From a virus (Duplodnaviria; Caudoviricetes): 58,873 bases of DNA. Shown here piece after piece: positions 15,724 to 38,573 of the stretch. A program made the position numbers and the translations under genes. Positions within the stretch are counted from its first letter, which is position 1. Every line of letters begins with the position of its first letter. The notes beneath the pieces were generated by a model that saw nothing but the letters and a program-made list of their open reading frames with translations, was not told the origin of the DNA and searched no databases. The stretch spans positions 1 through 58,873 of the IMG/VR virus record IMGVR_UViG_3300047560_003072; one strand, written 5' to 3'.

Positions 15724-15948
15724 TTAGAAAGTTCCCCCGTCTAGGTCTAGTAATTTTACTACATAAGTGTCTGTTGCCGGATCATAAACGAGGGTGCTAT
15801 TCTCCGGTGTCTCCGGAGTATCAGCTATCACATCCAACATCTGATCAATTCGTCTGTTGGCATCCGCTTGGATTGTGTTCTTTAGCGTAATTGGTGTCGT
15901 TGATTGAATCAGTCCATCCTGGACCTTAACAATAATTCCTTGGGTCAT
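15724..15948 (-). CDS. small fibre-associated adaptor protein
   Basis: 74 aa; LVYD..T..Y motif; ends LDGGTF like the neighbouring fibre. Confidence 0.55.
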   Translation of the reverse strand: MTQGIIVKVQDGLIQSTTPITLKNTIQADANRRIDQMLDVIADTPETPENSTLVYDPATDTYVVKLLDLDGGTF

Positions 15949-16271
15949 CTCGTAACTCCTGGGGTTACCGTTATAATGCCTTCAACAATTCGCGAGGTTA
16001 GCCCGCTTTTTGTCAGTAAAACATCATAAACATAACGACCGGGTGTTAAATTAGCTGTCTGCGTATCCGACAAAGCAAGTGTCACAACGCCCGTTCCAGG
16101 ACTCAGTGTTGTTGTGAAAGTTACTGCATTTGACGAAGTGTATGTCTTTCTCATCTGTGCGTTCGCACTATATCCGACCAGCGACACGACGTTTTCATCG
16201 TCATCGGTTAGTCTTATGGATGTTGAGTAGTCAGTACCCTGATCGATTACGAGATTTGCTTTAATAGCCAT
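15945..16271 (-). CDS. small virion structural protein (BppU-N-like adaptor)
   Basis: NLVIDQGTD, AQMRK, GRYVYDV, RIVEGIITVTPGVT pattern common in T4-like phages. Confidence 0.7.
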   Translation of the reverse strand: MAIKANLVIDQGTDYSTSIRLTDDDENVVSLVGYSANAQMRKTYTSSNAVTFTTTLSPGTGVVTLALSDTQTANLTPGRYVYDVLLTKSGLTSRIVEGIITVTPGVTR

Positions 16272-16320: not shown

Positions 16321-16929
16321 CTATTGTTTTACCCCGATCACCATGAACCGATTCTTGTGGCCAAGATTCAAACGTCCCCGCATCAACACTGTAGAAAATT
16401 GACATTGATCGACAAATTCATCAGTGGATCTAGCGATGTTGACATGACCGGGATCCGATTCTTCATCACAAGATTGAAAAGCATAAACCGCGCTTTGATT
16501 CTTTACGCGGATGTTTTCGATGTTTGTCATGTGTTCGCACGACGTGTTTATCACGATGTCTGCATCCACAAGACGGATTCGCGAAATATCATGCTCCACA
16601 TCAACAACACCCATCTTTATCTTTTCACTGCTGCTCTTTCCTACATCATGTAGAATCTGAGCAAACGAAAGCGTTTCACTGCTTTTATCCGTCAGTAATA
16701 TTTTCGATGGTTGAAACGCTTCTGTTAACATTGGGATCAAGTAGCTTCCAAACCATCCACCAAGAATAAGAATAGAAGGATTACTTGGGATCACTTGTTG
16801 CTTTAATGTATCAACAAGCCACTTCTTAGATCGATATTGTGTATTGCTTAAAGAGTTAGCGAGATCCTGAACTTGATCAGGTCTCGCTACTCGTAAGGCA
16901 TTTGAAACATTACAAAGGTAATCAAACAT
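16321..16929 (-). CDS. class I SAM-dependent methyltransferase-like protein
   Basis: ILILGGWFG (motif I), acidic residue after strand 2 (LLTD), IVINTSCEHM. Confidence 0.7.
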   Translation of the reverse strand: MFDYLCNVSNALRVARPDQVQDLANSLSNTQYRSKKWLVDTLKQQVIPSNPSILILGGWFGSYLIPMLTEAFQPSKILLTDKSSETLSFAQILHDVGKSSSEKIKMGVVDVEHDISRIRLVDADIVINTSCEHMTNIENIRVKNQSAVYAFQSCDEESDPGHVNIARSTDEFVDQCQFSTVLMRGRLNLGHKNRFMVIGVKQ

Positions 16930-17528
16930 TACACAACGATGTTCTGATTCAGAAGCTCAGGTCTCAGTTCTTGTATCAACCCCTCAATGTGGTTTTCAAG
17001 ATCGCTGTGTAGAGTGTATCCGTCGTAGAAAGTGTATTCTGTGTCGCGATCGAACACATCTTCATACCATGTAATTTCTTTTTGGTGATCGTTGCAGTAT
17101 TTCAGCAGCGTGCAAGTGCCGATTGCTGCAAACGTCATTTGCTGCTGAAGAAAGTGGCAATCACGTTCAGCACTGAAAGGATTGTTTTTAATCAGATAGT
17201 TAGCGCCAGACTTCAAAATGTTACGGAAGTTTTTGCGTGTGATGTATGCAATAGCGTCACCCCAATCTCTAGGCGTTGATGTAACGGAGTTGATCAAATA
17301 CAAGCTGGCTGGGGACAAAATGTTTTCCCAATGCATCATATACTCTGACAATGTATAGTCCGGCTGAACACCTGTTTCATGGAACATACGTTTGTAGTTG
17401 ATACGGTTTGTTGGGGGCTGGAGAACATAAATCTGAGTCAGCTCGCCTCTGAAGGGAACGTTTTGCTCGATCGACTTATGAATAGCGTACGCTGTTGATC
17501 CAGAACGTGGAGAACCTACAATATACAT
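16929..17528 (-). CDS. sulfotransferase-like P-loop protein
   Basis: N-terminal IVGSPRSGST resembles the 5'-PSB loop; later R..S (TRKNFRNILKS) and WYED motifs. Confidence 0.6.
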   Translation of the reverse strand: MYIVGSPRSGSTAYAIHKSIEQNVPFRGELTQIYVLQPPTNRINYKRMFHETGVQPDYTLSEYMMHWENILSPASLYLINSVTSTPRDWGDAIAYITRKNFRNILKSGANYLIKNNPFSAERDCHFLQQQMTFAAIGTCTLLKYCNDHQKEITWYEDVFDRDTEYTFYDGYTLHSDLENHIEGLIQELRPELLNQNIVV

Positions 17529-17554
17529 ATTACACCTCTGTTTTAAAAATTGTT

Positions 17555-18382
17555 ATGATAAACATCGTTTGCGTCAAAATTGGAACAAAATACAGCAGTA
17601 AATTTGCAAATCGTCTGTATAATATGTGTCAAACACATATAACACGTCCATTCAAGTTTTTTTGTTATACAGATGATCCCAATGGACTCGATGCTGGTAT
17701 AACGCCTGTTTCATTTGTCGACAACGATATCAAAATTATTGTGTTTAATAAGTTGTATTTATTAAGCAATGAGTTTGCATCTATGATCGGCAACAACGAT
17801 CCTTGTATGTTTTTTGATCTCGATATGGTAATCAAGGGGAACATAGACAGGCTCGTCGATTGTGCAACCGATTATGATGGAAAGCTAAGAGTGATCAACG
17901 CTGTATGGAAATACTCGTTTGACGAGGAAGAAGGAATGGAAGCCTTTAATCACCACATCAACTCGAGCTGTATGGTGTGGAAACCAACCGCCAGCAACTA
18001 TATTTGGGAACACTTTGCTAAACACAAACATCACTTCCAACAAAAGTTTCACACAGGTATGGATCCGTTTCTTTATTACGAAATGCAATGCAGAGGTGGA
18101 TTGCCTGAAGATATGTTCTATTCCTTTATTATGGGAATAGATCTAAAGATTAAAAGAATGATAACCGACCCTGCTGATTTTTACAATGTAAAAAATTCTA
18201 TTCCAATTGTGCTGTTTAATGGTCCGACAACAGATGAAGACATTGTTGAATTCATTGCTAGTGACTACAAAAAGGAATTCGACGACTTTAGTTTTGCCGA
18301 ATTCCTATATGGAAATCAAAAGAAGCGTGAACAGTTAAACCGGCAAAGGAAGGATAAGATGGACAGAAGGTTAGCCCTCTGA
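17555..18382 (+). CDS. glycosyltransferase (GT-A fold)
   Basis: Likely start ATG 17555 (MINIVCVKIGTKY); FFCYTDD, NKLYL, DxD motif FFDLDMVI, INSSCM. Confidence 0.8.
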   Translation: MINIVCVKIGTKYSSKFANRLYNMCQTHITRPFKFFCYTDDPNGLDAGITPVSFVDNDIKIIVFNKLYLLSNEFASMIGNNDPCMFFDLDMVIKGNIDRLVDCATDYDGKLRVINAVWKYSFDEEEGMEAFNHHINSSCMVWKPTASNYIWEHFAKHKHHFQQKFHTGMDPFLYYEMQCRGGLPEDMFYSFIMGIDLKIKRMITDPADFYNVKNSIPIVLFNGPTTDEDIVEFIASDYKKEFDDFSFAEFLYGNQKKREQLNRQRKDKMDRRLAL

Positions 18383-18985
18383 TTCAATATCCGCTACCAT
18401 ATCTTCCCACATACCTTCATGCGGAATGATGTAAGCAAGTGTTAGACGCTCTTCATGCTCAGCATTAGCACAATGCCAGTAGATTCTGTCTGTTTCTTTC
18501 CACGAGCCGTAGTAACCAACCTTACAAGTCCATCCTGGAGTATCGTTAATTGTAACAATCTCTTTCGTGATTGGATCTTGGTAACGGAAATATCCAGTAC
18601 CTTTTTCAGACCATGAGATAAGAATGTTATAACCTGGGGCGTTTGCGTTGTGGTGCCATCCCATGTAACCCGTTGCGGGATATAACATCTTAACAGCGTT
18701 GTTACGAGAACCGGACCACGCAAGCAGATCTTCATCTAACTTCTTCAGCGCGTCTTTCAATCCAGGCGGTGTCCATCGTGCAAGATCAACACCGTGTGTC
18801 TTTTCCGGAAATCCATCAACAGGTTTGTTTTGCATGAATTTCAAATACTCATCACCGCAAGCATATTCAGCCGTTATGTCTTTCTTCTGATACGGCCAGC
18901 CTGATCTATCTACAGCAAGCATGCTGCTCAGAAAGGTGTTGATAATTTTTAAAAGCTGTTTGTTTCTAATTTGGATGGTCTTCAT
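18371..18985 (-). CDS. DSBH/2OG-Fe(II) dioxygenase-like protein
   Basis: GYMGWHHN...YWHCA...RLTL metal/cosubstrate-like motif spacing. Confidence 0.6.
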   Translation of the reverse strand: MKTIQIRNKQLLKIINTFLSSMLAVDRSGWPYQKKDITAEYACGDEYLKFMQNKPVDGFPEKTHGVDLARWTPPGLKDALKKLDEDLLAWSGSRNNAVKMLYPATGYMGWHHNANAPGYNILISWSEKGTGYFRYQDPITKEIVTINDTPGWTCKVGYYGSWKETDRIYWHCANAEHEERLTLAYIIPHEGMWEDMVADIESEG

Positions 18986-19683
18986 TATTTGCCTACTCTA
19001 TGTGGAAGTGTGTGGTGATAAAAAACGATAGGATTCTTCGCTTCGTAAGAACGGTATCCGTTTACGAAATTCCAACGACCATCATCATCGAATACTTGTA
19101 CGTTAATTGGTAGCTTATCTTCATTCATAAGTTTCCACAACGTAAATTGGTCCCACTGAGCAAATGCTTCGGGAATAACGTTCTCTGGGTAGGGCCATGG
19201 ATCGATACGTTGTTTCCGGTAGTCTTGCCACCATCTTTCCATAAAATTCAACGTGCGCTCGTTGCTGCGATAGAGAAAGAAGCCTCCGTGATAGACCATC
19301 TCTCCTGTTGACCATTTATGCATTTTGCCATTGTATGGTCGTATTTTTGTGATTAGAATATCACATTCTTCGGGAATCTCGTCCCAAATATTTTGCACAT
19401 CCGTGTGCATACATTCCATGTCCGCATCAACATAACACGTCAATTCCGTATAAGGAGTACGTGAAAGAGCATACAGCTTTGCTCTTATATGATGTGGGAC
19501 ATCTTCACAAATCACTCGATTGAAGACATCATGATCGACATCGTCAATGAATTGTGGAGTTGTAAAAAGCGTGATGTCAGCATCCGGATAGAACTCCTTG
19601 ATGCTCGCCGCTGCAAAATTAGCTCCCTGTACATATCCTTGATGTACGGAAGCCACAATCAAAAAACCATTACGAACTGTCAT
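18985..19683 (-). CDS. glycosyltransferase (GT-A, GT8/nucleotide-diphospho-sugar transferase-like)
   Basis: AASIK, KLYAL, DxD motif YVDAD, GGFFLY, DQFTL, WNF, FYHH. Confidence 0.8.
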   Translation of the reverse strand: MTVRNGFLIVASVHQGYVQGANFAAASIKEFYPDADITLFTTPQFIDDVDHDVFNRVICEDVPHHIRAKLYALSRTPYTELTCYVDADMECMHTDVQNIWDEIPEECDILITKIRPYNGKMHKWSTGEMVYHGGFFLYRSNERTLNFMERWWQDYRKQRIDPWPYPENVIPEAFAQWDQFTLWKLMNEDKLPINVQVFDDDGRWNFVNGYRSYEAKNPIVFYHHTLPHRVGK

Positions 19684-19686
19684 ATT

Positions 19687-20154
19687 TTACTCTGCGGGGG
19701 TGTCCTGTGTTTCTTCTTGAGACGGGTTTTGAATTGAATCGAGAATGATTGCTGCTGCATATGCATAAACTTCGAAGTCGGTCTTTGCACGGCGCAGAGA
19801 AGATTTCAATGATTTATTTGCAGTATTCTTAATAACATCGACTTCAAACGCTTGCAACTTAACAGCAAACAGACGCTCTTGACGCTCTTTGTCAATCTTA
19901 GCTTCTTCAGCAGCTTTCTTTGCTTCGAGTTCCTGAGCCTGCTTTTTGATCATTTTCTGCGTGTTCTGCTCAAGCTCATCAGCAGAAAACTTTGCTCTGA
20001 CCTCTTGATAGTCAGCGTTGTTAGACTCATTAGAGTTAATAACCGCTGTCGAAACGCGACCATCATCATAATGAAATTCCACCGATAGCACTGTACGTGC
20101 ATTGTTTGTCCAATGAGGATTCTTAATAGTTCTCTTCATGCTGTTCTTACCCAA
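19687..20154 (-). CDS. putative fibre assembly chaperone
   Basis: IKNPHWTNNARTVLSVEF resembles tail-fibre-assembly protein N-termini; overlaps the 3' end of the giant repeat gene. Confidence 0.45.
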   Translation of the reverse strand: MGKNSMKRTIKNPHWTNNARTVLSVEFHYDDGRVSTAVINSNESNNADYQEVRAKFSADELEQNTQKMIKKQAQELEAKKAAEEAKIDKERQERLFAVKLQAFEVDVIKNTANKSLKSSLRRAKTDFEVYAYAAAIILDSIQNPSQEETQDTPAE

Positions 20155-23100
20155 AGTTTAATTGTTGAAACTGTTTCTGGTGTTGACACAATTGTTAGAC
20201 CACTGAAAGCACCTGTGAAAGCTCCGGAGTAAACACCAGTAAACACGTTACCATAACCGCCCGTAAAATAACCAATATACCCTTGACCGTAGATGCCAGT
20301 ATAGGTTGTATTGTAATCACCAGTATATAGGCCTGAATAAATTCCTGTAAACGCTCCAGTGTATATCCCGCTGAACGCACCAGTAAATCCTTGGTTGTAA
20401 CTACCAGAATAGATACCGGTGTATGTTGTATTATACACTCCTGTAAATGCTCCAGTAAACGCTTGGTTATACGCACCAGTGAAAACCTGCGAGTAGTTTC
20501 CTGTGAACGCTCCAGTGAACGTTTGATTGTAGGTGCCAGTAAACGTTTGCTGGTAGTTACCTGTATAGTTACCGGTAAATACCTGTGAGTAGTTTCCTGT
20601 GAACGCTCCGGTGAATGTCTGGTTGTAGATACCAGTAAACGTCTGTCCGTAACTGCCTGAATATGCGCCAGTGAATGTCTGGTTGTAAACGCCTGTAAAT
20701 GTACCTGTAAACGTTTGGTTGTAAGCACCAGTAAACGTTTGGTTATAGGCACCGGTAAATGCTCCAGTGAAAACTTGGTTATATGCACCAGTAAAGGATT
20801 GTGCATATGAACCACTATACGTTGCCGTAAACGATCCTACATATCCACCCGAATACAAACCTGAGAACGTACCAACATAACCACCAGAATAGAAACCAGT
20901 AAAGTAGCCCGTATAGCCACCTGAGTACAAACCTGAGAACGTACCTACATATCCACCCGAATAAATGCCGGTAAACGATCCAGTGTAGTTGCCTGTGTAG
21001 ATACCAGTAAAGTAGCCCGTATAGCCACCTGAGTACAAACCTGAGAACGTACCAACATAACCACCCGAATAAATACCGGTAAACGATCCAGTGTAGTTGC
21101 CTGTGTAGATACCAGTAAAGTTTTGAGCATATGTGCCCGAGTATATACCGGTAAAGTTTTGTGCGTACGCACCGGAATATGCACCAGTAAAGTAACCAGT
21201 ATATCCACCCGCGTAATTACCTGCATAGTATCCAGTATAGTAGCCAGTGTATCCACCAGAATATGTACCAGTAAAATTCCACGCGTACGCACCAGCGTAT
21301 GCGCCGGTGAAGTAGCCAGTGTAAACACCCGAGTATGAACCAGTGTAGTAGCCAGTGTAGTAGCCAGTATAACCACCAGCATACACGCCTGAGAATGCTC
21401 GCGAATAGGATCCTGAATACGCCCCTGTAAAGTATCCAGTGTATCCGCCGGAATACAAACCAGTGTAGTAACCTGTATAGTAGCCAGTGTAGTAGCCAGT
21501 GTACACACCAGTAAAATATCCTACATATCCACCCGAATATTGACCTGTGAATGCTCTTGCATATGCACCCGAATAGAGGCCAGTGTAATAACTAGTGTAG
21601 TAACCTCCAAATGCACCTGTGAACGATCCGGTATAGTTACCGGTGTACAGGCCAGTGTAGTAACCGGTGTAGTAACCAGCATACGCGCCTGCATACGCAC
21701 CAGCAAAAGCTTTTGCAACCGTAGCATATCCACCAACATATGTTGCATACTCATAGGCAGGGCTACCTGCATAATATGCAAGCAAGCGATTACCAGCATA
21801 GTTACCGGTATAGATTGTTATACCAGCTGCATAGCTGCCTTGATAATATCCAACGTAATATTGAGGGTATCCAGCGTAGTAGGCCCAAAGACGGTTGTTG
21901 ACGTATGTACCGAGATAAGAAGCTCCGTTGACGTTATAACCAACACCGCCGCCAGGATTTGAATTACCAAACTTTTTCAAGTTTGTAAAGAACGTACGAG
22001 CATATAAACCGGTATAGTAACCAGTGTAGTAACCAGTGTAGTAACCAAGGTATGCGCCGGCATATGTGCCTGAATACACACCCGTAAACACTCTACTGTA
22101 GGCGCCAGCATAATACCCTAGGTATGATGTTGCATATGAGCCAGCATAAGCACCCGTAAAATATCCCGTGTAGTTACCCGTGTAAAGACCAGTAAACGTC
22201 TGTGCATAAGCGCCAGAATAATAACCTGTATAGTAGCCGGTATAGTAACCAGTGTACGTACCAGAATAGATGCCGGTAAACGTCTGTGCGTATGCACCAG
22301 AATAAATGCCAGTGAAATATCCTGTATAGAATCCTGTATAAAGACCCGTGTAGTAGCCAGTATAGTAGCCAGTGTAGTAGCCAGTGTAGATACCGGTGAA
22401 ACCTTGAGCATAAGCACCAGAATAGATGCCGGTAAAGTAACCAGTGTACGTACCAGCGTATATACCGGTATATACACCGGTGTAGTATCCTGTGTAGTAT
22501 CCCGTATAAACACCGGTAAACGTTTGTGCATATGCACCGGAATAGATGCCGGTAAAGTATCCCGTATAAACACCAGAATACAAGCCAGTAAAGTAACCAG
22601 TGTATGTGCCTGAATATGTACCAGTAAACACACGGCTATATGTTCCTGAATACGCACCAGTAAACGTTTGTTGATATGCTCCAGAGTATGTGCCAGTGAA
22701 TACTTGCTGATATGTGCCTGAATATGTACCAGTAAACACACGGCTATATGTTCCTGAATACGCACCAGTAAACGTTTGTTGATATGCTCCAGAGTATGTG
22801 CCAGTAAATACTTGCTGATATGTACCAGCATAGGCACCCGTGAAGGTCTGCTGATATGCACCAGCATATGTGCCTGTAAACGTCTGGTTATAAATGCCAG
22901 TGTATGCGCCAGTGAAGTAACCAGTGTACAAACCAGAGAACGTGCCAGTAAATCCTTGACTGTAAATGCCGCTGAACGTTCCTACATAGCCACCAGAGAA
23001 TGCTCCTGTGAATCCCTGATTAAATGCACCGGTGAACGCACCAACATATCCACCTGAGTAAATACCAGTGAAGACGTTACCATAACCACCTGTAAAGGCG

Positions 23101-24266
23101 CCAGTAAATCCTTGACTGTAAATGCCAGTGAAAGTTCCTACATAACCACCAGAATAGACACCCGTAAACACATTGGTGTATCCACCAGAGAATGCACCGG
23201 TAAATCCTTGGTTGTAAATGCCAGTAAAGGTACCAGTGTATCCACCAGAAAAAGCTCCCGTAAATGCTTGAGAGTACACACCCGTATAAGCAGCAGTGTA
23301 TGCTCCTGTGTAAGCACCAGTAAACGTTCCGGTAAATGTTTGGTTGAATACGCCAGTGAATCCCTGATTAAAGACTCCTGTATACGCACCCGAGTAAGCA
23401 CCTGTGTATGCTTTTGTATACGCACCTGTGTAACTACCGGTAAATGTCTGCGCATAGGCACCGGAGAATACTTGACCATACGTGCCAGTAAACGCACTTG
23501 TAAACGAACCAGAATAACTCTGTGTTGCTGTTGAATATTCTGTATCGTCAAAACCACTACCAGCCATTGTCCATGTTCCTGGAGCTGTTGGAGCGGTTGA
23601 GCTTAGTTGGTATTTTCCAATACCATTATTGACAATGTAGTTACGAAGCTTGAATGTCAGCAGCTTGATTTCAGCATCTGACATTTCACGGAAGCCGCCA
23701 TAGAACTTGATTGGACGTCTAACGTTTGTAATTGTTTCAGCAGTCTTCTGCCACAGTGTGGTTGTATTTGTCGTACCACTTGTCAGAGTGTTGGTGAGTG
23801 TTCCACGTGAAACCCATGTACCTGAAGCTGGTGCTGTTGGTTGCAAAACATAGCTACCAACACCACCGTTGACCAATGCAGACGCTGCTCGTGAAATGAT
23901 TGACGTGTCAATATCACTGTCTGGCATTTCCTGCCATCCGTTGAGTACTGTATTCCAGGCCAAAGGACGGTTAAATGTTTCTGATATTGAGCCGTTTGAA
24001 AGATCTTGATAAACGGTCGTCGAAGTACTTGTTGTTGCAGTTGGACTTACAGGATGTGTACCGAGAGGATCCGTACGGTAAGTATCAACCCATGTACCAA
24101 TTGAAGTTCCGTTGGCCATTGAACCAATAGCAAGCGAGCCAACGCTTGTATTAGCAGCGAATCCTTCATTAATTTTTTTCACAAGGTAGTCATCTATGTC
24201 CGTCGTGGACATAGTCTGAAGACCGTTAAGTGAAGTGTTGTATTTTACGGGAGATAGAATGGCCAT
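20136..24266 (-). CDS. 1376-aa (Y/F)xGx tetrapeptide-repeat virion fibre protein
   Basis: About 250-aa N-domain with three (Q/R)-(E/T)-M-S/P..D/E repeats; about 1100 aa of tetrapeptide repeats with a central unique segment; C-terminal strand TIKLWVRTA. Confidence 0.8.
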   Translation of the reverse strand: MAILSPVKYNTSLNGLQTMSTTDIDDYLVKKINEGFAANTSVGSLAIGSMANGTSIGTWVDTYRTDPLGTHPVSPTATTSTSTTVYQDLSNGSISETFNRPLAWNTVLNGWQEMPDSDIDTSIISRAASALVNGGVGSYVLQPTAPASGTWVSRGTLTNTLTSGTTNTTTLWQKTAETITNVRRPIKFYGGFREMSDAEIKLLTFKLRNYIVNNGIGKYQLSSTAPTAPGTWTMAGSGFDDTEYSTATQSYSGSFTSAFTGTYGQVFSGAYAQTFTGSYTGAYTKAYTGAYSGAYTGVFNQGFTGVFNQTFTGTFTGAYTGAYTAAYTGVYSQAFTGAFSGGYTGTFTGIYNQGFTGAFSGGYTNVFTGVYSGGYVGTFTGIYSQGFTGAFTGGYGNVFTGIYSGGYVGAFTGAFNQGFTGAFSGGYVGTFSGIYSQGFTGTFSGLYTGYFTGAYTGIYNQTFTGTYAGAYQQTFTGAYAGTYQQVFTGTYSGAYQQTFTGAYSGTYSRVFTGTYSGTYQQVFTGTYSGAYQQTFTGAYSGTYSRVFTGTYSGTYTGYFTGLYSGVYTGYFTGIYSGAYAQTFTGVYTGYYTGYYTGVYTGIYAGTYTGYFTGIYSGAYAQGFTGIYTGYYTGYYTGYYTGLYTGFYTGYFTGIYSGAYAQTFTGIYSGTYTGYYTGYYTGYYSGAYAQTFTGLYTGNYTGYFTGAYAGSYATSYLGYYAGAYSRVFTGVYSGTYAGAYLGYYTGYYTGYYTGLYARTFFTNLKKFGNSNPGGGVGYNVNGASYLGTYVNNRLWAYYAGYPQYYVGYYQGSYAAGITIYTGNYAGNRLLAYYAGSPAYEYATYVGGYATVAKAFAGAYAGAYAGYYTGYYTGLYTGNYTGSFTGAFGGYYTSYYTGLYSGAYARAFTGQYSGGYVGYFTGVYTGYYTGYYTGYYTGLYSGGYTGYFTGAYSGSYSRAFSGVYAGGYTGYYTGYYTGSYSGVYTGYFTGAYAGAYAWNFTGTYSGGYTGYYTGYYAGNYAGGYTGYFTGAYSGAYAQNFTGIYSGTYAQNFTGIYTGNYTGSFTGIYSGGYVGTFSGLYSGGYTGYFTGIYTGNYTGSFTGIYSGGYVGTFSGLYSGGYTGYFTGFYSGGYVGTFSGLYSGGYVGSFTATYSGSYAQSFTGAYNQVFTGAFTGAYNQTFTGAYNQTFTGTFTGVYNQTFTGAYSGSYGQTFTGIYNQTFTGAFTGNYSQVFTGNYTGNYQQTFTGTYNQTFTGAFTGNYSQVFTGAYNQAFTGAFTGVYNTTYTGIYSGSYNQGFTGAFSGIYTGAFTGIYSGLYTGDYNTTYTGIYGQGYIGYFTGGYGNVFTGVYSGAFTGAFSGLTIVSTPETVSTIKLWVRTA
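20895..21110. repeat. 108-bp tandem duplication (C-terminal arm)
   Basis: accagtaaag recurs at 20895, 21003 and 21111; encodes FTGIYTGNYTGSFTGIYSGGYVGTFSGLYSGGYTGY x2; few synonymous mismatches. Confidence 0.85.
22603..22818. repeat. 108-bp tandem duplication (N-terminal arm)
   Basis: tatgtgcctgaatatg at 22603 and 22711; encodes YQQVFTGTYSGAYQQTFTGAYSGTYSRVFTGTYSGT x2; nearly identical. Confidence 0.85.
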
Positions 24267-24284
24267 TACAATACTCTAGCAGTA

Positions 24285-26327: not shown

Positions 26328-26328
26328 G

Positions 26329-27537: not shown

Positions 27538-27548
27538 CGCTTACCCTA

Positions 27549-30176: not shown

Positions 30177-30390
30177 TTGTTTTTCCGTTTATTAATTGTT
30201 GCAGTAGCTGCTTTATCTCTTTCATATCCTGCTGCAATGTGGCAACTTCTTGAGCAGTGCGTTGCAATTGCAACACTCTTTCTCTCTCCATTCTGAATTG
30301 AGCATAGCCAGCTTTATCTATATTTAGAATAGCGGTCGAACGCTTGTCTCTGACAAAACCAGGATCTTCCGTTTTAATTATTTCGTTCAT
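30157..30390 (-). CDS. small conserved T4-like phage protein
   Basis: FVRD..S.AILN.D...Y motif plus coiled coil, typically found after the large DUF4815/VrlC-like gene. Confidence 0.7.
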   Translation of the reverse strand: MNEIIKTEDPGFVRDKRSTAILNIDKAGYAQFRMERERVLQLQRTAQEVATLQQDMKEIKQLLQQLINGKTNGTSDI

Positions 30391-32426
30391 GCTGAGACAG
30401 CGATTGCACGAACATCGTCGACGTATGGAACCTTGATACCATCTTCAGAAAGAAGAACGATCTTGAGAGCAAAAGAATCGAAGCCTTTATGTATGGCTCT
30501 TGCTTTGTTGTAATACGTTACAATGTTTTGTGATTGAATATCAAGGAATGCGCTGCTTGGACGATCAATAACGTCAACTTTCAAACCTGTTCCAACCAAG
30601 CTAGCATTTGCGCCTGTACCTGTTGCAAGAGTAAACGTTGTCGTGTTAGATTCAACGACAGTATCCACAAAATATGTGCTTGGAATGATAGGTGAGTACA
30701 CACGAACCAAATTACCATTTGCAATCTCTGTACTTACTGATCCCGATGTTCCCGTAACAACGGTACATGCAGAGAGAGTCGTGAATGATCCTGTTGCCGT
30801 AGTTCCTAGTCTATAGAAAGGAATTGAATATTCAAGTTCTTTACGGTCGTAAATGTTTGTGGGGTTGCTATAGTCTGTATTTGCTGTGACTAAAGAAAGC
30901 TCAGTCCAATCTTTCAAGTCCATAGACTCAAGATCTTCCGAATTACGCAGTCGTGCGTATACAATAATGTTTGTATTAGCTGGTCTGTAAGCACGAACAT
31001 ATATTTTCAGATCTTCGGCAATCTGATCATCGGAAAGGGGAATTACTTTGGAAATATAGCGTGTTTTTGCAGATCCAAATCCCGTATACTCATTTGTCGT
31101 TGTGTTGTTTAATTCATAACGCTCAACAAACAAGTCCATATTCTCTTCACGGACATATGGTGAAACGTATGGATTAGTCGTCGTAAAGGTAATCAAACCA
31201 CGGAAAGCATCTTCTGTTGCGGCCGTTGTTACTTTGTTTGACTGTGAGAAAATTACAGGATCATATTGGTTAATTAGCAGTCTATCACCAAGCGTTGCCG
31301 TAACAGCATTTGTATCGCTGAATTGATAGGCAGCATTAGCAAAGTTTAAAGATGCTGTTACTGCTGTTCCTGCAGGTGTTTTAATGTCAAAGTTTGGAAC
31401 AAGACCATTAACAGCGTAATCCAAAACTGTTGTTATGAGTGCTGTTGCTTGTGAATCGACACCGTAAATTCTTTCTCCTGCGCTGAGATAAACAGTCGTA
31501 TTAGCTGTTGAATCTTGTAGGATTACATGATCGGAAAGACCGTTAGCATCAAACAACTTTGCAGTTACTGTTTTGAAATAGTTACCTGACGTATTTGAAA
31601 ATGATGGTACAACATCAACAACCATAGATGTTGCATTTGTAACGGAAACAACTGTACGTATTTCTGTGTTGCCTGGAGTACCATCTGTAATGGCAAACTT
31701 ATCACCAACAAGAAGTGTTGTGTTGAATGACGTACCTGTACCTGTCAATGTTGTACTGTTTTCCGAAATAGCCACTGTACCGGTTGCGTTTGCGCTTAAG
31801 CGATACACATCCTCACCACCCTTGAAATCACCCACCATGCTATTAACACGGAGGATTTCATATTTGCGGTTATAAACTCTAAATGTTTCCGACGTCTTTG
31901 AAAATTTTGCAACTTGTAGATTGAAGGAAAGGTCCGCATCAAGGACAGGTGTCAAATCTCTACCGTTTGTAATTGTGTAGAAGGCACCATCAACTTTACC
32001 AGAAGTTACTTGTGTCTTTGTTGTTGTGCCAAAAACGTTTTCACCAGCTTTGTTATACCACAATTTGAAGTCAGGATCACTACCATCAAACTTAATCAGA
32101 AAAGCATACGAACGAGCTGTCGAAAGAGGAACAGGCTGTCTGAAAGTAAAAGTTGTTGCTGTAGCACCTGACGCATCGGTAAGAATATTTTCATACTCCA
32201 CACGACCAGCAAACGTATGATGATACAGATCTAGGTTAGGAGATCCATTATCGTTTGTCATTGCGAGGTAGACGGACGCACCTGGATTTGTAATCCCAGA
32301 TTTTGTCTTTCCTGAAACAGGTTTTCCAAAGAAATACAAGTCGACGCTCGTGACAAAAATGCTATCAGCACCCTCTACTGCATCTTTATCAAGATAGAAT
32401 GTTTGAGCTAAATCAAAACCAGCCAT
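30387..32426 (-). CDS. virion structural protein (C-terminal part of DUF4815/VrlC-like family)
   Basis: LAQTFY, FVTSVDLYF, TTFTFRQPV, RYISKVI, AEDLKIY, FALKIVL, D.RAIA motifs. Confidence 0.75.
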   Translation of the reverse strand: MAGFDLAQTFYLDKDAVEGADSIFVTSVDLYFFGKPVSGKTKSGITNPGASVYLAMTNDNGSPNLDLYHHTFAGRVEYENILTDASGATATTFTFRQPVPLSTARSYAFLIKFDGSDPDFKLWYNKAGENVFGTTTKTQVTSGKVDGAFYTITNGRDLTPVLDADLSFNLQVAKFSKTSETFRVYNRKYEILRVNSMVGDFKGGEDVYRLSANATGTVAISENSTTLTGTGTSFNTTLLVGDKFAITDGTPGNTEIRTVVSVTNATSMVVDVVPSFSNTSGNYFKTVTAKLFDANGLSDHVILQDSTANTTVYLSAGERIYGVDSQATALITTVLDYAVNGLVPNFDIKTPAGTAVTASLNFANAAYQFSDTNAVTATLGDRLLINQYDPVIFSQSNKVTTAATEDAFRGLITFTTTNPYVSPYVREENMDLFVERYELNNTTTNEYTGFGSAKTRYISKVIPLSDDQIAEDLKIYVRAYRPANTNIIVYARLRNSEDLESMDLKDWTELSLVTANTDYSNPTNIYDRKELEYSIPFYRLGTTATGSFTTLSACTVVTGTSGSVSTEIANGNLVRVYSPIIPSTYFVDTVVESNTTTFTLATGTGANASLVGTGLKVDVIDRPSSAFLDIQSQNIVTYYNKARAIHKGFDSFALKIVLLSEDGIKVPYVDDVRAIAVSA

Positions 32427-32442
32427 TTGTTATCCTTAAACC

Positions 32443-32865
32443 TTATTGCTTGACTTCTACGTATTCGCTTTCAGGCGGATACAGAACTTGTATACGAATG
32501 TGACTACGGAAGCAAGAAAGACTCGTCGTCATAAAATCATCCGAAAGTGTTTGTGAATTTGTGGTTGTAAGAGCAACTTCCTTATTACCTGCAATAAGGT
32601 TTGAAGCAGCTTGCGATTGCTCAAGAGTTGTCTTATCTCCGCTTAAACCAGAATCATACAGATAGTCAAACGTCATTTTTCCATTGCTATCTGTTCTAAG
32701 AGGTTCACCCGCTTTGCCGCCAAGAGGCTTTAGCTTCGATGCTGGAACAAGCTGTCTTTCAAAATAAAAATAGTGTGTTGTAAGTGGCAGCAAACCTGAA
32801 ACGTTAAACGTGAACGTTTGCTCTCTTGCTACAAAATATACACGAGGATTAGTCTTCGTTGGCAT
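32443..32865 (-). CDS. virion structural protein (middle part of DUF4815/VrlC-like family)
   Basis: R.QTFTFNVSGLLP.T.HYFYF and LRTDSNG motifs. Confidence 0.6.
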   Translation of the reverse strand: MPTKTNPRVYFVAREQTFTFNVSGLLPLTTHYFYFERQLVPASKLKPLGGKAGEPLRTDSNGKMTFDYLYDSGLSGDKTTLEQSQAASNLIAGNKEVALTTTNSQTLSDDFMTTSLSCFRSHIRIQVLYPPESEYVEVKQ

Positions 32866-34117
32866 GCTTAACCTTTTTCAGCTTAAAGAAAATCTTGTTT
32901 CCTTTTGGTGTTAACTCTATTCGTCTCTTAATAATTGGTTCTTGTTCTAAAACAACAACAAAATTCTTACATATCATTTGCATAACATCAGGACCAACCT
33001 TCATTGTGAGACCGGAGCCAGGACATCCTCGCTCACCTCCACCGAAAGGTATATAACTTCCCTTCTCTATGCTTGATAAACCTTTTGCAAAGCGCATTGG
33101 ATCGAATAACTCTGGACTCTTCCAATTCTGCTCTGACATATGCGTATCACGCACACTAACTAAATCTGTTGAACTCTTCCAAAAGTGAAATGGACATTTC
33201 GACTTCTGCTTTGGTTCATATGATAACAAATGGAATGGCGGGTACATTCTTAACACTTCCATAAACGCCCAACGAGCATACGCTCCATCGTTTGCTATTC
33301 TTGCTGCATCGTGTCGATTTTTCGAAACGACATACAGCATCCACATTACAGCGCCAGCAAGTGAGTTACCATTTATGATTAGCATTCTGATTTCACCCTT
33401 TACATCTTCTTGTGTAAGGATACCCTCTTGCTCAGCCTGCTTCAAATCATAAAACAAACTACCTTTTTTACCAACCGCCTTTGTATAAACCAACTCCGCT
33501 AACATATCCAGGTTCTCATTGCGTTTCTTCAACCCTGGCGCAAATACATCTTTAACAAACTTTGGTACAAACGGAACATAATTCAAAAAAAACATACGTG
33601 CCGTTGAAACATCCGCCCCATGTTCTTTATGGGAAAGTCCAATTCTATTTAGCTCTTGCTGTGCATCATCTGGCAACTTTGCACCGAGCAGATTACTCAA
33701 CAGACTGTTTCCAATAATCCCACCCACAACACCAATAGGATTAAACGTTTCACCGTTTTCTGAAATAGTCGATACAGTTTCAAACAACTGCTTTGTAACT
33801 TGATCAGAAATAATTTCGTATATTGAAGCCTTTAAGTGCTTCTTCATAAACTGACGTTTAATTTTAGCCTTTTCATCATCTTGCGAAACAGATGAGTGAT
33901 TCGCACCCATATGTTTAAGCATTCTACGTGAAAATCCCGACCGTGTTATATCTCTCCTTGTGTACAGCTCACTAATAACTTTTGGATTGGATGTAACCAT
34001 TATTTCCTTGCCAACAGCTCTAAAACGAACTGTTTGGCTAGGAATTTTTGAAAGATCAGTTAGTATCTTTTTGAATTTTGTTTTGTAGGTCATTATATTG
34101 TATCGATCCTTTGACAA
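32849..34117 (-). CDS. cytochrome P450
   Basis: Heme-thiolate signature PFGGGERGCPG, K-helix EVLRMYPP, meander WKSPELFDPMRF; alternative start ATG 34093. Confidence 0.93.
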   Translation of the reverse strand: MSKDRYNIMTYKTKFKKILTDLSKIPSQTVRFRAVGKEIMVTSNPKVISELYTRRDITRSGFSRRMLKHMGANHSSVSQDDEKAKIKRQFMKKHLKASIYEIISDQVTKQLFETVSTISENGETFNPIGVVGGIIGNSLLSNLLGAKLPDDAQQELNRIGLSHKEHGADVSTARMFFLNYVPFVPKFVKDVFAPGLKKRNENLDMLAELVYTKAVGKKGSLFYDLKQAEQEGILTQEDVKGEIRMLIINGNSLAGAVMWMLYVVSKNRHDAARIANDGAYARWAFMEVLRMYPPFHLLSYEPKQKSKCPFHFWKSSTDLVSVRDTHMSEQNWKSPELFDPMRFAKGLSSIEKGSYIPFGGGERGCPGSGLTMKVGPDVMQMICKNFVVVLEQEPIIKRRIELTPKGNKIFFKLKKVKHANED

Positions 34118-37100
34118 TCTTGTATTTCAAGAATGCCTTTACAGCAGCAAATTTTACCGCGTAAGGAACTTTCTCACCTTTTGTTGAAGTTACATCACTA
34201 TACAATTGATTGACAATGTCTCTATCATTGTACTGCGTTGCATGCTTGTCGATTAATTTCAATGTTGCTAACTTGTATAGCTTTTTTGCTTGTTCATTTT
34301 GACCAAGTTTAACAAGCTGCGTCAGTGGTTTAATAGTTTCACTGTAGAAGTCATCCCATTTTGTTTTACGCTCGGCAATAATCGGACCAACAACATAATA
34401 GAATTTCTTAGCCTGATCATCGCGCTTGGAAGTCATGTGAACGTCACGTAGATAACGTGCAAGATGCAATTCCTCACAGTCATCATCCAATCCCAAGTAT
34501 TGTACAGTAGCTGTTGTTAGGAAACAAGAGCCACTACCGCTCGAGCCGCCAGTACTTCCGGAAGTATCACCAGACATACCTGCACCACCGTAATCAGGCG
34601 CTGGTGGTGCGGGATCTGGAACAATTGTCACTTCACCGCGGGCCATGATTGAGAATGACGACGGCTCAACTGTACCTTCACCAACGAATTGTGTACGTTG
34701 ACCGTCTGTACCAATAACACTACTCTTAATGCTCTGGTTAATCAAGATAGTAGAAGCAAAAGGCAACATCAATGTATCACCATTAATAATACCTGCTGCT
34801 GTGTTTGCATGAGTTGTATCAAAGCGAGCTTCAAAGTTGATTTGCTTTGTAGCTGGTTTCAAAAAGCCTTTTTGCTGATCAATAGTTGCAGCAAACTCAG
34901 GATGTGTTACATCGACCTTTGTGTAATCATCAAATGGTTCGACGAAAAAGCCATTTTTGAAACGACTCGTTGTTGGTGTAATACCACTAGGAATAACAAG
35001 ATCTTTAATCGCTGATTCGACTTGATTCAAGGATGTTGTATATTCAACAGCTTTCAAACGACGATCCAACGAACCAATATCAGACATTGTGTAACGTCTT
35101 GGCTGAGATTCAATCGACTCTTTCATTGTGATAGATCTGATCGATGATTGTACCATCTTTCTGTTAACACTACCACGTGTACTTGTTGTTCTCTTTGCAG
35201 CAAATTCAACACTGTCTGCATTTAGCGAAATAGGGAATGAAGGATATGGAGGAACCTTCAATACTTCAAGTGTAACAGCGCCAGCCGGCTCTTTTGGAGG
35301 AACTGGATTTGTTGGATGTGGGATACCTTCAAGCACTTCAAAAGAAGAGTCTTTACGGACAATTACTCTATCAATACGCGAATCGTAGTAATTGATTGTA
35401 AACGAAACAAGTGAATCAGGAGCAGGGAAATATTGATCATCACCACTCAGAGCAAATGTGTTTGCTGGGTTCACCGTAGCACCTGCAACAGTTGTCGCAA
35501 TGTTAGCTGTGTTTGATCCATATGGGCGGAAGTCGATTACATCACGAAGATCGTAATAATCACCCTTGGTAGTAACAGTTTCAGGCATTTCCAAAACGTT
35601 AATGCCGGCGTTATTATTTGCACTTAGTGTAGTCAGGTTAGCTGTTGCGTTGATCGTATAAGAACCATACGTAAAGAAACCTTCCGCGCCACCTGTTGTA
35701 AATGCATCAACCTTAACAAGGATAAATGTATTAGTATTGACACCTGGTTGTGCGCCTGGGTTCAAAATCAACTTAGCGGAACGATAAGCATTCTCATCAT
35801 CATTTACATCAACGGAGAAATACTTGGTAATGTCTGTGTTACTCGTTGTAACAGCAGATGAGTTACCTAGGTAAACGTTTTTCAAACGAATGACACCTGG
35901 AATACCTAGGTACCAAGGACCAGTGTTGCCGCCTGCGTTATTGCTTGTATGGATTTTAACATACAATTCACGGTTAACAGTCTTCGTTACAGGAGATGCG
36001 TTTGTCTTCTTCTTGTTGTATACTGCAATTGCTCCGACTTGCGGTGTAATTGCTTTGTTAATATCAATTGTCAGTGTTGTAGCACCAGCGTTTAGGTTTG
36101 CTGTTCTTGTCGAACGCACAATATCGATTGGATACAGAGCAGGGAAGAAAGGAACAAGGTTACCTGTAACAGCCAACGCAGCATTTGCATAAAGTGTCAT
36201 TGAGGTGTTGCTTGCAACTGATTTAATTTGTGCAACAACGTTTGCTGTTGTATTTGCAATCTTAACCCAATCGCCTGCCTGATATTCCGTCAGCCAATTT
36301 GTGGACGTTCCTGTTAATGTCGGGCTCGTCGTGCTGGTGGTTGTTGATCCGTTGGTATTCGACTGAGCTTGTGTGTTTGCAATCGGGAAAAGAATGATGT
36401 CCTGTTTTTGTGCTGCAGACAATGAACCGCCGGCAGTGTATGGGAACGTCTCACCAGTACCCAAAGGACCAATTGTCAGTTGACCGGTTGTGGAAAGCTG
36501 CAGTGTTGATGGAGAAACTGTTCTGTACGTGTATGTAATATCAGTCAACGATGCTACACCTTCGCGGCCAACAGGGAAGATCATCTTATCGTTTTGAACA
36601 TCGACAAGAGAAGCAATGTTGGATGCTGTAGTTGCATCATATGTCAAAACAACGTCTGCAACACCATCATATGTGCTATCATAATATACAGCACGAACTT
36701 GACGGAATGAATAACCCTGTTTCATGTTGATATCAAACAAGTACATACGATAAACGCACTCTGGTGTACCTGGTGTACCTGAATGAATTACCAACGAACG
36801 CATACGCGCTGTACCGATTTCAGAGCCTGGAGCAGTAATCGATCCCGTACCAACCGTCATTGTTGATCCGTATTGTTTTGCTGCACTGCGCAAACTTACA
36901 GTTGCACCTGCTTTGAAATCGAACTGACCTGCAAGCTCTTTAACCAAAACATAATTACCGTAGTTAATGGTAATGTTCTGGTTCGGTGACGTTACAGTAT
37001 CTGTTGAACGTCTGATGTCAAGGTAGTTGTTGTAAGTCGTTTGTACGCGATAACCACTAATGTAAGCCAATCCTGGATCAATAATGACTTGAGCATGAGT

Positions 37101-38573
37101 TGCATTAGCAGTTGATTTCTCTTTTGTTGCAACGCGGAACGGATCAGCAACAAAATTACCTTGCGATTCGCGTGTACGGCGAGCAAACTCATCAGCTAGA
37201 TTGGAATAGATTGTTGTACGATTCTCTTTGTATGGGAATCCTTCTTTCCATTCTGCCAAAGCAAAAAAGTCGACGTTTGCGGCAGCCTCATCCAACGTAA
37301 GTGTAGTAAGCGTTGGTGTTAGTTGCAGACGGTCTGCACCAGGCGCTGTATAGTTTGTTGTGTTGGAAGCGTTGTCATACAACGAGTCATCTTGCGCAGC
37401 GGTAACAACGGTTTCTGGTGTTGTAAAACCAACTGCAATGTTGTCTGGTGTTGTTGTGTACTTGTCAACAACAATAACTTGAGGATCTACCTTTAGAAAG
37501 TATCCCTTTTGATAGATGATACCTTCTGATACACCAAATGCGTAGCCTGTACCAATAGCATTAACATCGCTGTTTGCAACAGTAATAATGGTTTTATAGT
37601 TGACAGGAGTGATTGTTAAAGCTGGAGTGCCGTAAGTAGCCGTAGCATTAGCTGACTGAATCGTAACATGGGGTAAGAATGTGTAGTCGGAACCACCATC
37701 TTGGATGGAGATTAACTGAACAATACCTAATGTGTCTGTAGTAATTAGACCCTTTGCACCACTACCAATTAGAGATGAAACGTTTGCAGTTGCTCCGCTG
37801 ATGTTACCACTAATGTTATAGCCAGGTGTAAATGTCCATGCTGTTGCGTTGACAGATGTATTGACAAGATCTGTAGAACGTGGTTTAACACTCAACACAA
37901 TTGTGTTTGCAATTGCTGTTGTATTGATTGTGTTAATGACAGCTTTTGCACCTGTCGTGGCTTGTGTGATTGTTTCACCTTGCTGGAAAGCAATTGAGTT
38001 ACCCGTGATCGTAAGAGCACTCATAACGACGAGTGAGTCGGAATTTGAAAACCCCTGACCACCACTATCAACAGACATTTTGAACAGCTCGTAGTTTTTA
38101 CTGAAGACTGTTAGCTGTTGACTTGGACTGAAAGCAGAATAAACAGTATTTCCGTTAGCAGGATCAGGATCCGAGCTGTTAACATATTGAACGAAGAGTG
38201 TTTTTAGGTCAGGCGATTTTGATTCCAGACCGTCTTCATAGTTAACAATACGTCCTTGTAGGTTCAGATTACTCTTGATGAAATATCCAACATATGCGGA
38301 AGGAATAGAAGGTTCACCATCTACTTGTGTATCAAGAATCTTTACATAGCTGTAAGTTGGTAAATACGAAAAGTTAACGCCACTTATGATTGTGCCTGAT
38401 TTGAAAACGTGATTACCAAAACGTTCGATTTGGTTTTGCAGCGTCGTTTGAAGCTGGTTCAACTCTCGGGTCTGAACAGCAACGCCCGGCTTAAAAAGAA
38501 TCTTGTAGTATTCTTTTGCCTGATCGTAATCGTCAAAATATGGGCTTGCGCTGTAAGAATTTTCTAATGGCAT
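34056..38573 (-). CDS. large virion structural protein (DUF4815/VrlC-like) with C-terminal CFI-box-CTERM-like domain
   Basis: PYFDDY...ILFKPG.AVQTRELNQLQ, APGADR, RRTRESQGNF, RFKNGFFVEPF; C-terminal GGSSGSGS-CFLTTA...LRD...YY..GP. Confidence 0.85.
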   Translation of the reverse strand: MPLENSYSASPYFDDYDQAKEYYKILFKPGVAVQTRELNQLQTTLQNQIERFGNHVFKSGTIISGVNFSYLPTYSYVKILDTQVDGEPSIPSAYVGYFIKSNLNLQGRIVNYEDGLESKSPDLKTLFVQYVNSSDPDPANGNTVYSAFSPSQQLTVFSKNYELFKMSVDSGGQGFSNSDSLVVMSALTITGNSIAFQQGETITQATTGAKAVINTINTTAIANTIVLSVKPRSTDLVNTSVNATAWTFTPGYNISGNISGATANVSSLIGSGAKGLITTDTLGIVQLISIQDGGSDYTFLPHVTIQSANATATYGTPALTITPVNYKTIITVANSDVNAIGTGYAFGVSEGIIYQKGYFLKVDPQVIVVDKYTTTPDNIAVGFTTPETVVTAAQDDSLYDNASNTTNYTAPGADRLQLTPTLTTLTLDEAAANVDFFALAEWKEGFPYKENRTTIYSNLADEFARRTRESQGNFVADPFRVATKEKSTANATHAQVIIDPGLAYISGYRVQTTYNNYLDIRRSTDTVTSPNQNITINYGNYVLVKELAGQFDFKAGATVSLRSAAKQYGSTMTVGTGSITAPGSEIGTARMRSLVIHSGTPGTPECVYRMYLFDINMKQGYSFRQVRAVYYDSTYDGVADVVLTYDATTASNIASLVDVQNDKMIFPVGREGVASLTDITYTYRTVSPSTLQLSTTGQLTIGPLGTGETFPYTAGGSLSAAQKQDIILFPIANTQAQSNTNGSTTTSTTSPTLTGTSTNWLTEYQAGDWVKIANTTANVVAQIKSVASNTSMTLYANAALAVTGNLVPFFPALYPIDIVRSTRTANLNAGATTLTIDINKAITPQVGAIAVYNKKKTNASPVTKTVNRELYVKIHTSNNAGGNTGPWYLGIPGVIRLKNVYLGNSSAVTTSNTDITKYFSVDVNDDENAYRSAKLILNPGAQPGVNTNTFILVKVDAFTTGGAEGFFTYGSYTINATANLTTLSANNNAGINVLEMPETVTTKGDYYDLRDVIDFRPYGSNTANIATTVAGATVNPANTFALSGDDQYFPAPDSLVSFTINYYDSRIDRVIVRKDSSFEVLEGIPHPTNPVPPKEPAGAVTLEVLKVPPYPSFPISLNADSVEFAAKRTTSTRGSVNRKMVQSSIRSITMKESIESQPRRYTMSDIGSLDRRLKAVEYTTSLNQVESAIKDLVIPSGITPTTSRFKNGFFVEPFDDYTKVDVTHPEFAATIDQQKGFLKPATKQINFEARFDTTHANTAAGIINGDTLMLPFASTILINQSIKSSVIGTDGQRTQFVGEGTVEPSSFSIMARGEVTIVPDPAPPAPDYGGAGMSGDTSGSTGGSSGSGSCFLTTATVQYLGLDDDCEELHLARYLRDVHMTSKRDDQAKKFYYVVGPIIAERKTKWDDFYSETIKPLTQLVKLGQNEQAKKLYKLATLKLIDKHATQYNDRDIVNQLYSDVTSTKGEKVPYAVKFAAVKAFLKYKIVKGSIQYNDLQNKIQKDTN

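Follow-up and report, generated by a model that had tools for sequence, protein, structure and literature searches.

In the P450 systems for RiPPs (peptides that are ribosomally synthesised and then modified post-translationally), such as the biarylitides, the cyptides and the P450 macrocyclases, the cytochrome P450 gene directly follows, and is coupled with, the end of the gene that encodes the presumed peptide target (PMC12002111, PMC11659900, PMC12150307). Virus-encoded P450s are mentioned for giant viruses and for Mycobacterium phage Adler in two further papers (PMC9405906, PMC11814380), and no report of a P450 within a T4-like tail module was found in the searches made. No publication was found on the catalogued CFI-box-CTERM family (NF041770). 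Here we describe a stretch of 58,873 nucleotides (58.9 kb; hereafter the window), a fragment in IMG/VR virus record IMGVR_UViG_3300047560_003072 with a CheckV completeness estimate of 33%, which PHROG scans identify as the structural module of an uncultured T4-like phage. In it, a P450 gene overlaps the end of a large tail-region gene whose product terminates in an extended, long-form CFI-box-like domain. To judge by the sequences searched, this pairing appears to be undescribed before. The same 22-kb region encodes tyrosine-glycine hairpin fibres followed by a set of enzyme-like proteins. The region probably represents two independent accessory modules of the tail apparatus, each coherent and conserved.

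The long-form domain and a P450 of one small clade are paired in 7/7 independent contigs, the window included, and the two genes always overlap out of frame. The pairing was reached from both sides. In the domain-first search, 3/3 long-form viral contigs (L002, L003 and L005) have an overlapping clade P450 directly downstream; L004 is the same as L002, and L006 the same as L003. A domain search of 185,579 species genomes gave a single long-form match, a 255-residue protein in a Nannocystaceae (myxobacterial) metagenome-assembled genome (MAG; L034), which is also overlapped by a P450, of 464 residues. The P450-first search recovered viral contigs L002 and L003 and metagenome loci L025, L026 and L027, the last two near-identical, and in all 5/5 clade P450 loci the upstream gene ends in the long-form domain and overlaps the P450 start. 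An alignment of the P450 clade was required for this search, as the scan of viral contigs with the single protein found nothing; it was also used in place of an alignment of the long-form tail, which alone is too variable for metagenome scans. No P450 accompanies the short form of the domain, at 0/18 viral loci and 0/16 loci among the species genomes. For 30 of the short-form CFI-box genes the sequence extends 1500 nt or more downstream, and neither a P450-profile match nor a heme motif was found behind any of these (0/30). No downstream partner common to short-form genes was found; the genes that follow them fall into 19 unrelated groups.

The carriers of the cassette are unrelated proteins: DUF4815 proteins of 1488–1816 residues, Gly-rich proteins of 525 and 677 residues, and the 255-residue bacterial protein. 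Pairwise identities of the domain and of the P450 are correlated (Mantel r 0.82; 1/5040 permutations reaches it), and the window cassette resembles that of L002, which rides on an unrelated carrier, more closely than that of the syntenic L005. Homologues of the 1505-residue window carrier in L005 and L025 (51–55% identity) carry the cassette. Other homologues at 53–55% identity (L058, L059 and L109) end without the domain and are followed by a homologue of the 140-residue protein, with no P450. These relatives lacking both domain and P450 indicate that the cassette is an optional unit of domain plus enzyme. Among the long-form representatives listed, the domain always stands at the very C-terminus, and no fusion of domain and P450 was found.

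The window P450 scores 76.4 bits on PF00067 (gathering cut-off 22.8) and 70.2 bits in a six-frame search. The heme-thiolate loop FGGGERGCPG and the K-helix ExxR motif are present, and C358, E280 and R283 are invariant in 18 sequences. In P450s, the acid-alcohol pair (D/E-T) of the I-helix serves O2 activation. The clade has ..ANT.. or ..GNS.. at the aligned acid spot, that is, an Asn for the acid, with the register judged by eye. Among 5.8 billion clustered proteins, the clade comprises 14 relatives at 39–93% identity, beyond which the matches drop to E 1e-7, and a tblastn search of 50,697 phage records with the P450 found no match. Among solved structures, CYP175A1, BM3 and CYP97 come nearest, matched over the C-terminal half only, and a weak match to the CYP152 peroxygenases (32.6 bits) was also seen. 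The model for cyclodipeptide-associated P450s gave 12.3 bits against a cut-off of 500. Residues ~299–305 (nt 33190–33210, minus strand) form a near-invariant S-K-C-P-F-H-F stretch, in which C301 and P302 are kept in at least 90% of the 18 sequences. The stretch resembles a Cys-Pro heme-regulatory motif; the bacterial P450 in L034 is without it.

The 1505-residue protein ends in a Gly/Ser linker, then CFLTTATV..DDCEEL..LAR..RD and about 130 further residues. The resulting domain of ~156 residues is led by an invariant Cys after a small residue and stands at the very C-terminus. It shares with NF041770 domains the C-terminal position, the Cys-Phe-(Leu/Ile) after a small residue and a ..LR.FRD-like helix, but is ~60 residues longer (helices 5–7), has two Cys instead of four, and, unlike other NF041770-type domains, has a P450 partner, which is seen with the long form only. 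On NF041770 itself the window domain scores 18.4 bits, below the curated cut-off of 40, and other long-form relatives score 23–32 bits or have no match. A profile built from three long-form domains retrieves 3543 representative clusters, ~19 of them long-form. When 30 of the retrieved proteins were scanned with NF041770, 18 exceeded its cut-off, 9 gave weaker matches and 3 gave none; retrieved members score 42–63 bits on NF041770. The window domain may thus be regarded, from its sequence, as a divergent, extended relative of the CFI-box. Its AF2 model is a seven-helix bundle (predicted local distance difference test, pLDDT, 88). No better match than E 0.7 was found by Foldseek against PDB, VIA-align wide gave Z <= 5.7, which is noise for a helical bundle, and a PDB sequence profile search found nothing. 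One of the long-form representatives P0030, P0025 and P0027 caps a mannose-binding lectin-like protein, and two further capped proteins have, by eye, hydrophobic signal-peptide-like N-termini and Pro-rich regions. Such carriers suggest that the long-form module is not confined to phage tail proteins.

The original prediction made for this region had pointed to a CFI-box plus P450 cassette with a RiPP-like logic applied to structural proteins. The cassette itself was borne out: a genuine P450 lies beside a C-terminal domain linked to CFI-box members through its own profile. The RiPP-like logic is a fair analogy for the cassette only, in which the enzyme gene directly follows and overlaps the presumed target-encoding end. 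Even for the cassette, the likeness to RiPP P450 systems has limits. No short precursor gene of RiPP type was found beside the P450; its partner is a folded 156-residue domain at the end of proteins of 255 to 1816 residues, the P450 falls outside the RiPP P450 models, and there is no conserved aromatic core motif. Compared with other viral P450s, the window enzyme is likewise virus-encoded, but its gene is placed among the tail genes of a T4-like module and linked to a structural-protein domain, which would be a new P450 setting. CFI-box-type domains stand at the end of thousands of surface proteins in phages and bacteria (3543 representative clusters), and a subfamily with a co-inherited P450 offers an experimental handle on this uncharacterised family.

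Among fibres, the closest described system is the tip needle of the T4 long tail fibre protein gp37, in which the chain runs to the tip and returns, forming a thin beta-rich stalk with His-x-His iron sites. The two paralogous fibres of the window resemble it in their predicted out-and-back chain with both ends together, but a Tyr/Phe-Thr-Gly-x repeat, with up to ~128 units per arm, replaces the His-x-His iron sites, and no sequence relation between the window fibres and the gp37 needle was found. Both window fibres have a strict four-residue repeat with the phase consensus [YF]-[TS]-G-x, in which nearly every repeat has Thr or Ser at its second position. In the 1376-residue fibre, 277 lag-4 aromatic pairs are observed against 82 expected, with runs of 50 and 52 aromatics spaced exactly 4 apart. 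One register covers residues 251–759 and another 843–1354, so that arms of 509 and 512 residues flank a non-periodic centre; seeming breaks in the runs are extra aromatics, and the register is unbroken.

Relatives with a visible centre have mostly matched arms (534/513, 466/465, 170/176, 165/176, 290/319 and 529/587), although total fibre length varies widely. The terminus ..LW/LY-x-R-x-x is present in 29/29 listed family members, and a triple N-terminal domain is common to the three fibres compared in full sequence, the two of the window and that of L076. Distant relatives have short fibres of ~420 residues with the same ends as the long ones and a short period-4 stalk. The matched arms and the common ends of the family members support the description as hairpins, in which the stalks would run out and fold back at equal length; the unequal arms of some homologues (173/134, 279/393 and 389/1241) weigh against it. 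At the DNA level, the repeats show recent tandem duplications of 36 to 120 nt matching up to 99%. The 1376-residue fibre gene contains 108-nt tandem duplications at nt 20890–21121 and nt 22603–22823 that are 96% and 99% matched, indicating very recent lengthening of the stalk.

Directly behind the fibre are three small genes, the first of which, for the 150-residue protein, begins at the stop codon of the 1376-residue fibre. The 150-residue product has weak Atlas leads to tail assembly chaperone families (PF16778; 0.75 by features, and a template modelling score, TM, of 0.48 by structure). The 232-residue protein scores 22.6 bits on PF03407, borderline against the cut-off of 22; D86-A-D88 is invariant in 16 sequences, and no PDB sequence match was found. 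The AF2 model of the 204-residue protein is a double-stranded beta-helix (DSBH; pLDDT 94.5), which Foldseek matched to PHD2, AlkB and prolyl 4-hydroxylase (P4H) with prob 0.96–1.0 and TM of only 0.24–0.44. There were 67 PDB matches at E <= 1e-3; nearly all of those listed are 2-oxoglutarate (2OG) oxygenases, with a few cupin or carbohydrate-binding module (CBM) jelly-rolls among them. None of the 26 family members matched a 2OG-oxygenase Pfam family at E <= 1, there was no meaningful PDB profile match, and the Atlas leads were 0.87–0.88 only. The 204-residue family shares the DSBH fold with the P4H, PHD2 and AlkB 2OG-Fe(II) oxygenases, including the viral collagen prolyl hydroxylase of PBCV-1, but the HxD/E...H iron triad is replaced: H111, N113, H171 and R180 are invariant in 26 sequences, with Asn113 in place of the carboxylate ligand Asp/Glu. 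The His...His...Arg spacing of 60 and 9 residues matches that of PHD2.

The variable part of the block consists of glycosyltransferase-like and putative methyltransferase-like genes. Homologues of the 275-residue protein occur at 69/80 loci, with up to 4 paralogues that differ in number and strand between relatives. In the 202-residue family, GGWxG and a downstream Asp are conserved; the PDB profile search gave weak spermidine synthase matches (E 0.09–0.5) and no Pfam or NCBIfam match was found, and the methyltransferase label is a guess from the motif. For the 199-residue protein, R8, S9 and T12 are invariant in 6 sequences, and Pfam, PHROG, NCBIfam and PDB profile searches found nothing; by analogy with the PAPS-binding loop motif of sulfotransferases, a sulfotransferase role is only a guess. 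The 199-residue (−) and 275-residue (+) genes diverge with starts 26 nt apart (nt 17528–17555), and the 275-residue gene converges on the 204-residue gene and overlaps its end. This divergent and convergent layout is also present in relatives L052–L055.

Relatives of the 204-residue protein are present in 484 viral contigs, and co-occurrence was counted in the best 80 of them. The 232-residue protein was found at 77 of these loci, the 150-residue protein at 71, the 275-residue protein at 69, the fibre at 68, the 202-residue protein at 64, the LtfC-like protein at 46, the 199-residue protein at 5 and the P450 at 0. Gene order was counted in the 59 loci where 3 kb or more lies upstream of the 204-residue homologue. 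There, the 232-residue gene is present in 59/59, the 150-residue gene in 58/59 and the fibre in 57–58/59, and the contiguous order fibre, 150, 232, 204 residues is kept in 53/59, spanning 38–76% identity. The sole deposited phage with the fibre block is Phage C48C1 (OQ984149.1, Kyanoviridae), whose genes there are annotated 'hypothetical protein'. It encodes a 3347-residue fibre-family protein, then homologues of the 150-, 232- and 204-residue and LtfC-like genes at 30–39% identity. Unlike in the window, its large protein after gp8 is unsplit and lacks the CFI-box domain, and there is no P450.

The distribution of the two modules bears on the unified view of the original prediction, in which the whole region formed one integrated system. 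Adjacency is strongly conserved inside each half, and that part of the view is supported; the halves, in contrast, are distributed independently across genomes, an outcome that the original prediction had itself named as telling against it. Part of a homologue of the 1505-residue protein is visible at 34/80 fibre-enzyme loci, and the P450/CFI-box cassette is absent from 80/80. Conversely, the cassette occurs in contigs and on carriers without the fibre-enzyme block (L002, L003 and the bacterial L034), and no 204-residue homologue was found in the L002, L003 and L005 records, which are 6–19% fragments. The absence of the cassette from all 80 block loci and its presence without the block leave cross-linking of tyrosine fibres by the P450 not supported; the P450 is not a general partner of these fibres. 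The independence of the modules corrects a tempting unified model.

Other parts of the original prediction fared unevenly. The hairpin fibres with aromatics at every fourth position held. For the proposed transferase/dioxygenase cluster, the GT-A-like 232-residue protein, the 2OG-fold 204-residue protein and the glycosyltransferase-like 275-residue protein were retained, and the methyl- and sulfotransferase labels stayed at the level of motifs. The supposed sequon-rich scaffolds, the 402- and 875-residue proteins, do not exceed compositional expectation. The former has 13 sequons against a shuffle mean of 11.1 (579/2000 shuffles reach 13) and the latter 26 against 29.8 (1670/2000 reach 26). 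Only a 944-residue fibre outside the 22-kb region is enriched, with 55 sequons against 31.4 (0/2000 shuffles), owing to a GNSTVN motif that recurs in it. Each protein has between 0 and 2 sequons of the bacterial type D/E-x-N-x-S/T.

What the modules do can be proposed from these arrangements. In the fibre module (nt 16321–26327), the stalks would run out and fold back as length-matched hairpins, and a conserved set of a small assembly-type protein, a GT-A-like transferase and a protein of 2OG-oxygenase fold, together with the variable glycosyltransferase-like and methyltransferase-like genes, would assemble and decorate the fibre. The decoration is most plausibly O-glycosylation of the repeat Thr/Ser; with Thr or Ser in the second position of nearly every repeat, stalk O-glycosylation would be the simplest reading. 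A widespread, length-adjustable hairpin fibre travels with a glycosyltransferase-like and an atypical oxygenase-like gene, and the block points to virion modification in marine T4-like phages.

Two points count against fibre decoration: the fibre may not be what the enzymes act on, and the 204-residue protein, with Asn at the iron-carboxylate position, may not be a working oxygenase. A rather unlikely alternative is that the enzymes leave the fibre untouched. They would then change the pools of nucleotide sugars or the sugars on the host surface, or would have only a structural or assembly role without activity, with the oxygenase-like HxN protein as a pseudoenzyme. The departure from the canonical HxD/E triad, the lack of a family-level sequence match for the 204-residue protein and the varying number and strand of the glycosyltransferase paralogues would suit this alternative, but the contiguous gene order kept over a wide range of identities, and the invariant H111, N113, H171 and R180, which argue for a conserved site, speak against it.

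In the cassette module (nt 32849–34526), a helical long-form domain is joined through a Gly/Ser linker to the C-terminal end of the large protein after gp8, with a dedicated P450, its gene overlapping the last codons of the domain, inherited with it as one unit. We infer that the P450 works on or with the long-form domain. It could oxidise the domain, forming a cross-link, hydroxylating it or releasing it at the G/S|C junction, or could dock on it, and the long-form extension, helices 5–7, would be the part recognised. Among the possible roles of the P450, action on or with its own domain ranks first, a domain that tethers the enzyme or holds a lipid second, and an unrelated passenger last.

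In its most specific form, the first of these roles would make the long-form domain a Cys-led maturation module of a full-size virion protein, with processing dependent on its private P450. That enzyme would act oxidatively on the domain or on its G/S|C junction, or make an acceptor or ligand handled by the domain. This form is held only tentatively. Weighing against action of the P450 on or with its domain are the nearest solved P450 relatives, CYP175A1, BM3 and CYP97, which act on lipids and carotenoids, the distance from the RiPP P450 models (ApyO 38.9 bits, cut-off 525), the lack of an obvious conserved aromatic pair in the extreme C-terminal tail of the domain, and the pairing itself, whose 7/7 cases cover part of the ~19 long-form clusters. 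If true, maturation would extend the RiPP-type enzyme-substrate logic to structural proteins and provide the first enzymology for the large CFI-box family.

The domain might instead be a docking or packaging adaptor, through which a virion-borne P450 acts on host envelope lipid or isoprenoid, or might itself bind a lipid substrate. Carotenoid and fatty-acid hydroxylases being the nearest solved P450s, this is conceivable, and the Asn for acid in the I-helix with the weak CYP152 match would suit action without redox partners. Less than 5 kb separates the bacterial pair in L034 from a ceramidase-like gene and a polyprenyl synthetase gene (nt 1886–3331 and 9146–10423 of that contig). The similarity of the P450, though, is limited to the generic C-terminal half, domain and P450 are never fused in the representatives listed, and the bacterial neighbours are a single MAG case. 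We consider the adaptor role unlikely, and rank it below action of the P450 on or with its domain.

Accessory genes are common at phage module junctions, and the P450 could be an unrelated auxiliary, or moron, gene hitch-hiking beside the CFI-box domain. The adjacency in all seven contigs, the out-of-frame overlap, the unrelated carriers and host domains, the joint presence or absence and the correlated divergence make such hitch-hiking very improbable. Least probable of all, hardly to be entertained, is a single system in which the P450 and the transferase/oxygenase cluster act jointly on the tyrosine-rich fibres, for example by glycosylation together with dityrosine cross-links, the CFI-box serving as a RiPP-like handle: in the window all parts do share one strand and a span of 22 kb, and in the syntenic L025 a fibre homologue is seen downstream of the cassette, where the L025 sequence examined ends, but the block loci without P450 include the close relatives L058, L059 and L109 whose carrier lacks the domain, the cassette is also found on carriers that are unrelated and in a bacterium that has no such fibres nearby, and C48C1 has the fibre block with no P450 match.

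The 22-kb region sits between the neck genes and gp8 and is on the minus strand throughout, one gene excepted; no close relative was found among deposited phages. In the rest of the window, PHROG scans identify prohead protease, portal, terminase and neck proteins, proteins of the tube and sheath and of the baseplate wedge and hub, and proteins like gp32 and gp59. For the gp8-like wedge protein, the nearest relatives are in Caulobacter phage Cr30 and the Sinorhizobium phiM12 group, at 33–37% identity. The features are listed in Table 1.

Table 1. Features of the region between the neck genes and gp8, in window coordinates
Feature	Position	Strand	Basis or remark
108-aa LtfC-like tail fibre assembly protein	15945–16271	−	phrog_3304, E 1e-22; closes the fibre block, just outside the 22-kb region
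202-aa protein, possible class I S-adenosylmethionine (SAM)-binding fold	16321–16929	−	GGWxG...D motif
199-aa protein, RSGST P-loop-like motif	16929–17528	−	motif only
275-aa glycosyltransferase-like protein	17555–18382	+	phrog_1962, E 4e-6; sole + strand gene of the block
204-aa protein, 2OG-oxygenase (DSBH) fold	18371–18985	−	AF2 and Foldseek; H111-x-N113...H171...R180
232-aa GT-A-like nucleotide-sugar transferase	18985–19683	−	PF03407, DxD; 59/59 loci
150-aa protein, candidate fibre assembly factor	19687–20139	−	directly after fibre; 58/59 loci
1376-aa period-4 fibre	20136–24266	−	N-terminal triple domain; arms 251–759 and 843–1354; C-terminal ..IKLWVRTA
680-aa period-4 [YF]-[TS]-G-x fibre, paralogue of the 1376-aa fibre	24285–26327	−	repeat analysis
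402-aa N/S/T-rich fibre-like protein	26329–27537	−	composition
875-aa N/S/T-rich fibre-like protein	27549–30176	−	12-aa FSNTLSATGAxx repeats
77-aa virion structural protein	30157–30390	−	phrog_473, E 5e-14
679-aa protein, C-terminal part of phrog_358	30387–32426	−	phrog_358 positions 1815–2054 of 2056
140-aa protein	32443–32865	−	assigned to the split large-gene region rather than the cassette
Cytochrome P450, small clade	32849–34096	−	PF00067; first 41 nt overlap the 1505-aa gene end
Long-form CFI-box-like C-terminal domain (residues 1350–1505 of the 1505-aa protein)	34059–34526	−	own profile links to CFI-box members
1505-aa tail-region protein after gp8, domain carrier	34056–38573	−	DUF4815; phrog_358 N-part

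The large gene after gp8 is split in the window into parts of 1505, 140 and 679 residues (nt 30387–38573), and distant relatives L076 and L095 have an unsplit protein of 2249–2268 residues. Homologues of the 140-residue protein accompany the P450 in L005 and L025, and are also present in L058, L059 and L109, where there is no P450. A role of the cassette as the cause of the split was rejected, since relatives are split without a cassette. A split intein was set aside too, as the domain is all-helical, the proteins that follow have, by eye, no intein-like ends, and the split occurs without the cassette.

In the 875-residue gene, 13 copies of a 36-nt unit at nt 28067–28533 encode the FSNTLSATGAxx repeats. 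A segment of ~90 residues (..YYVVGAN.TA.QL..TYGG..INIT..) is common to the 402- and 875-residue proteins and to a 973-residue baseplate wedge protein (nt 40347–43268), and the homologue of the 402-residue protein in L025 matches residues 475–569 of the 973-residue protein with 56% identity.

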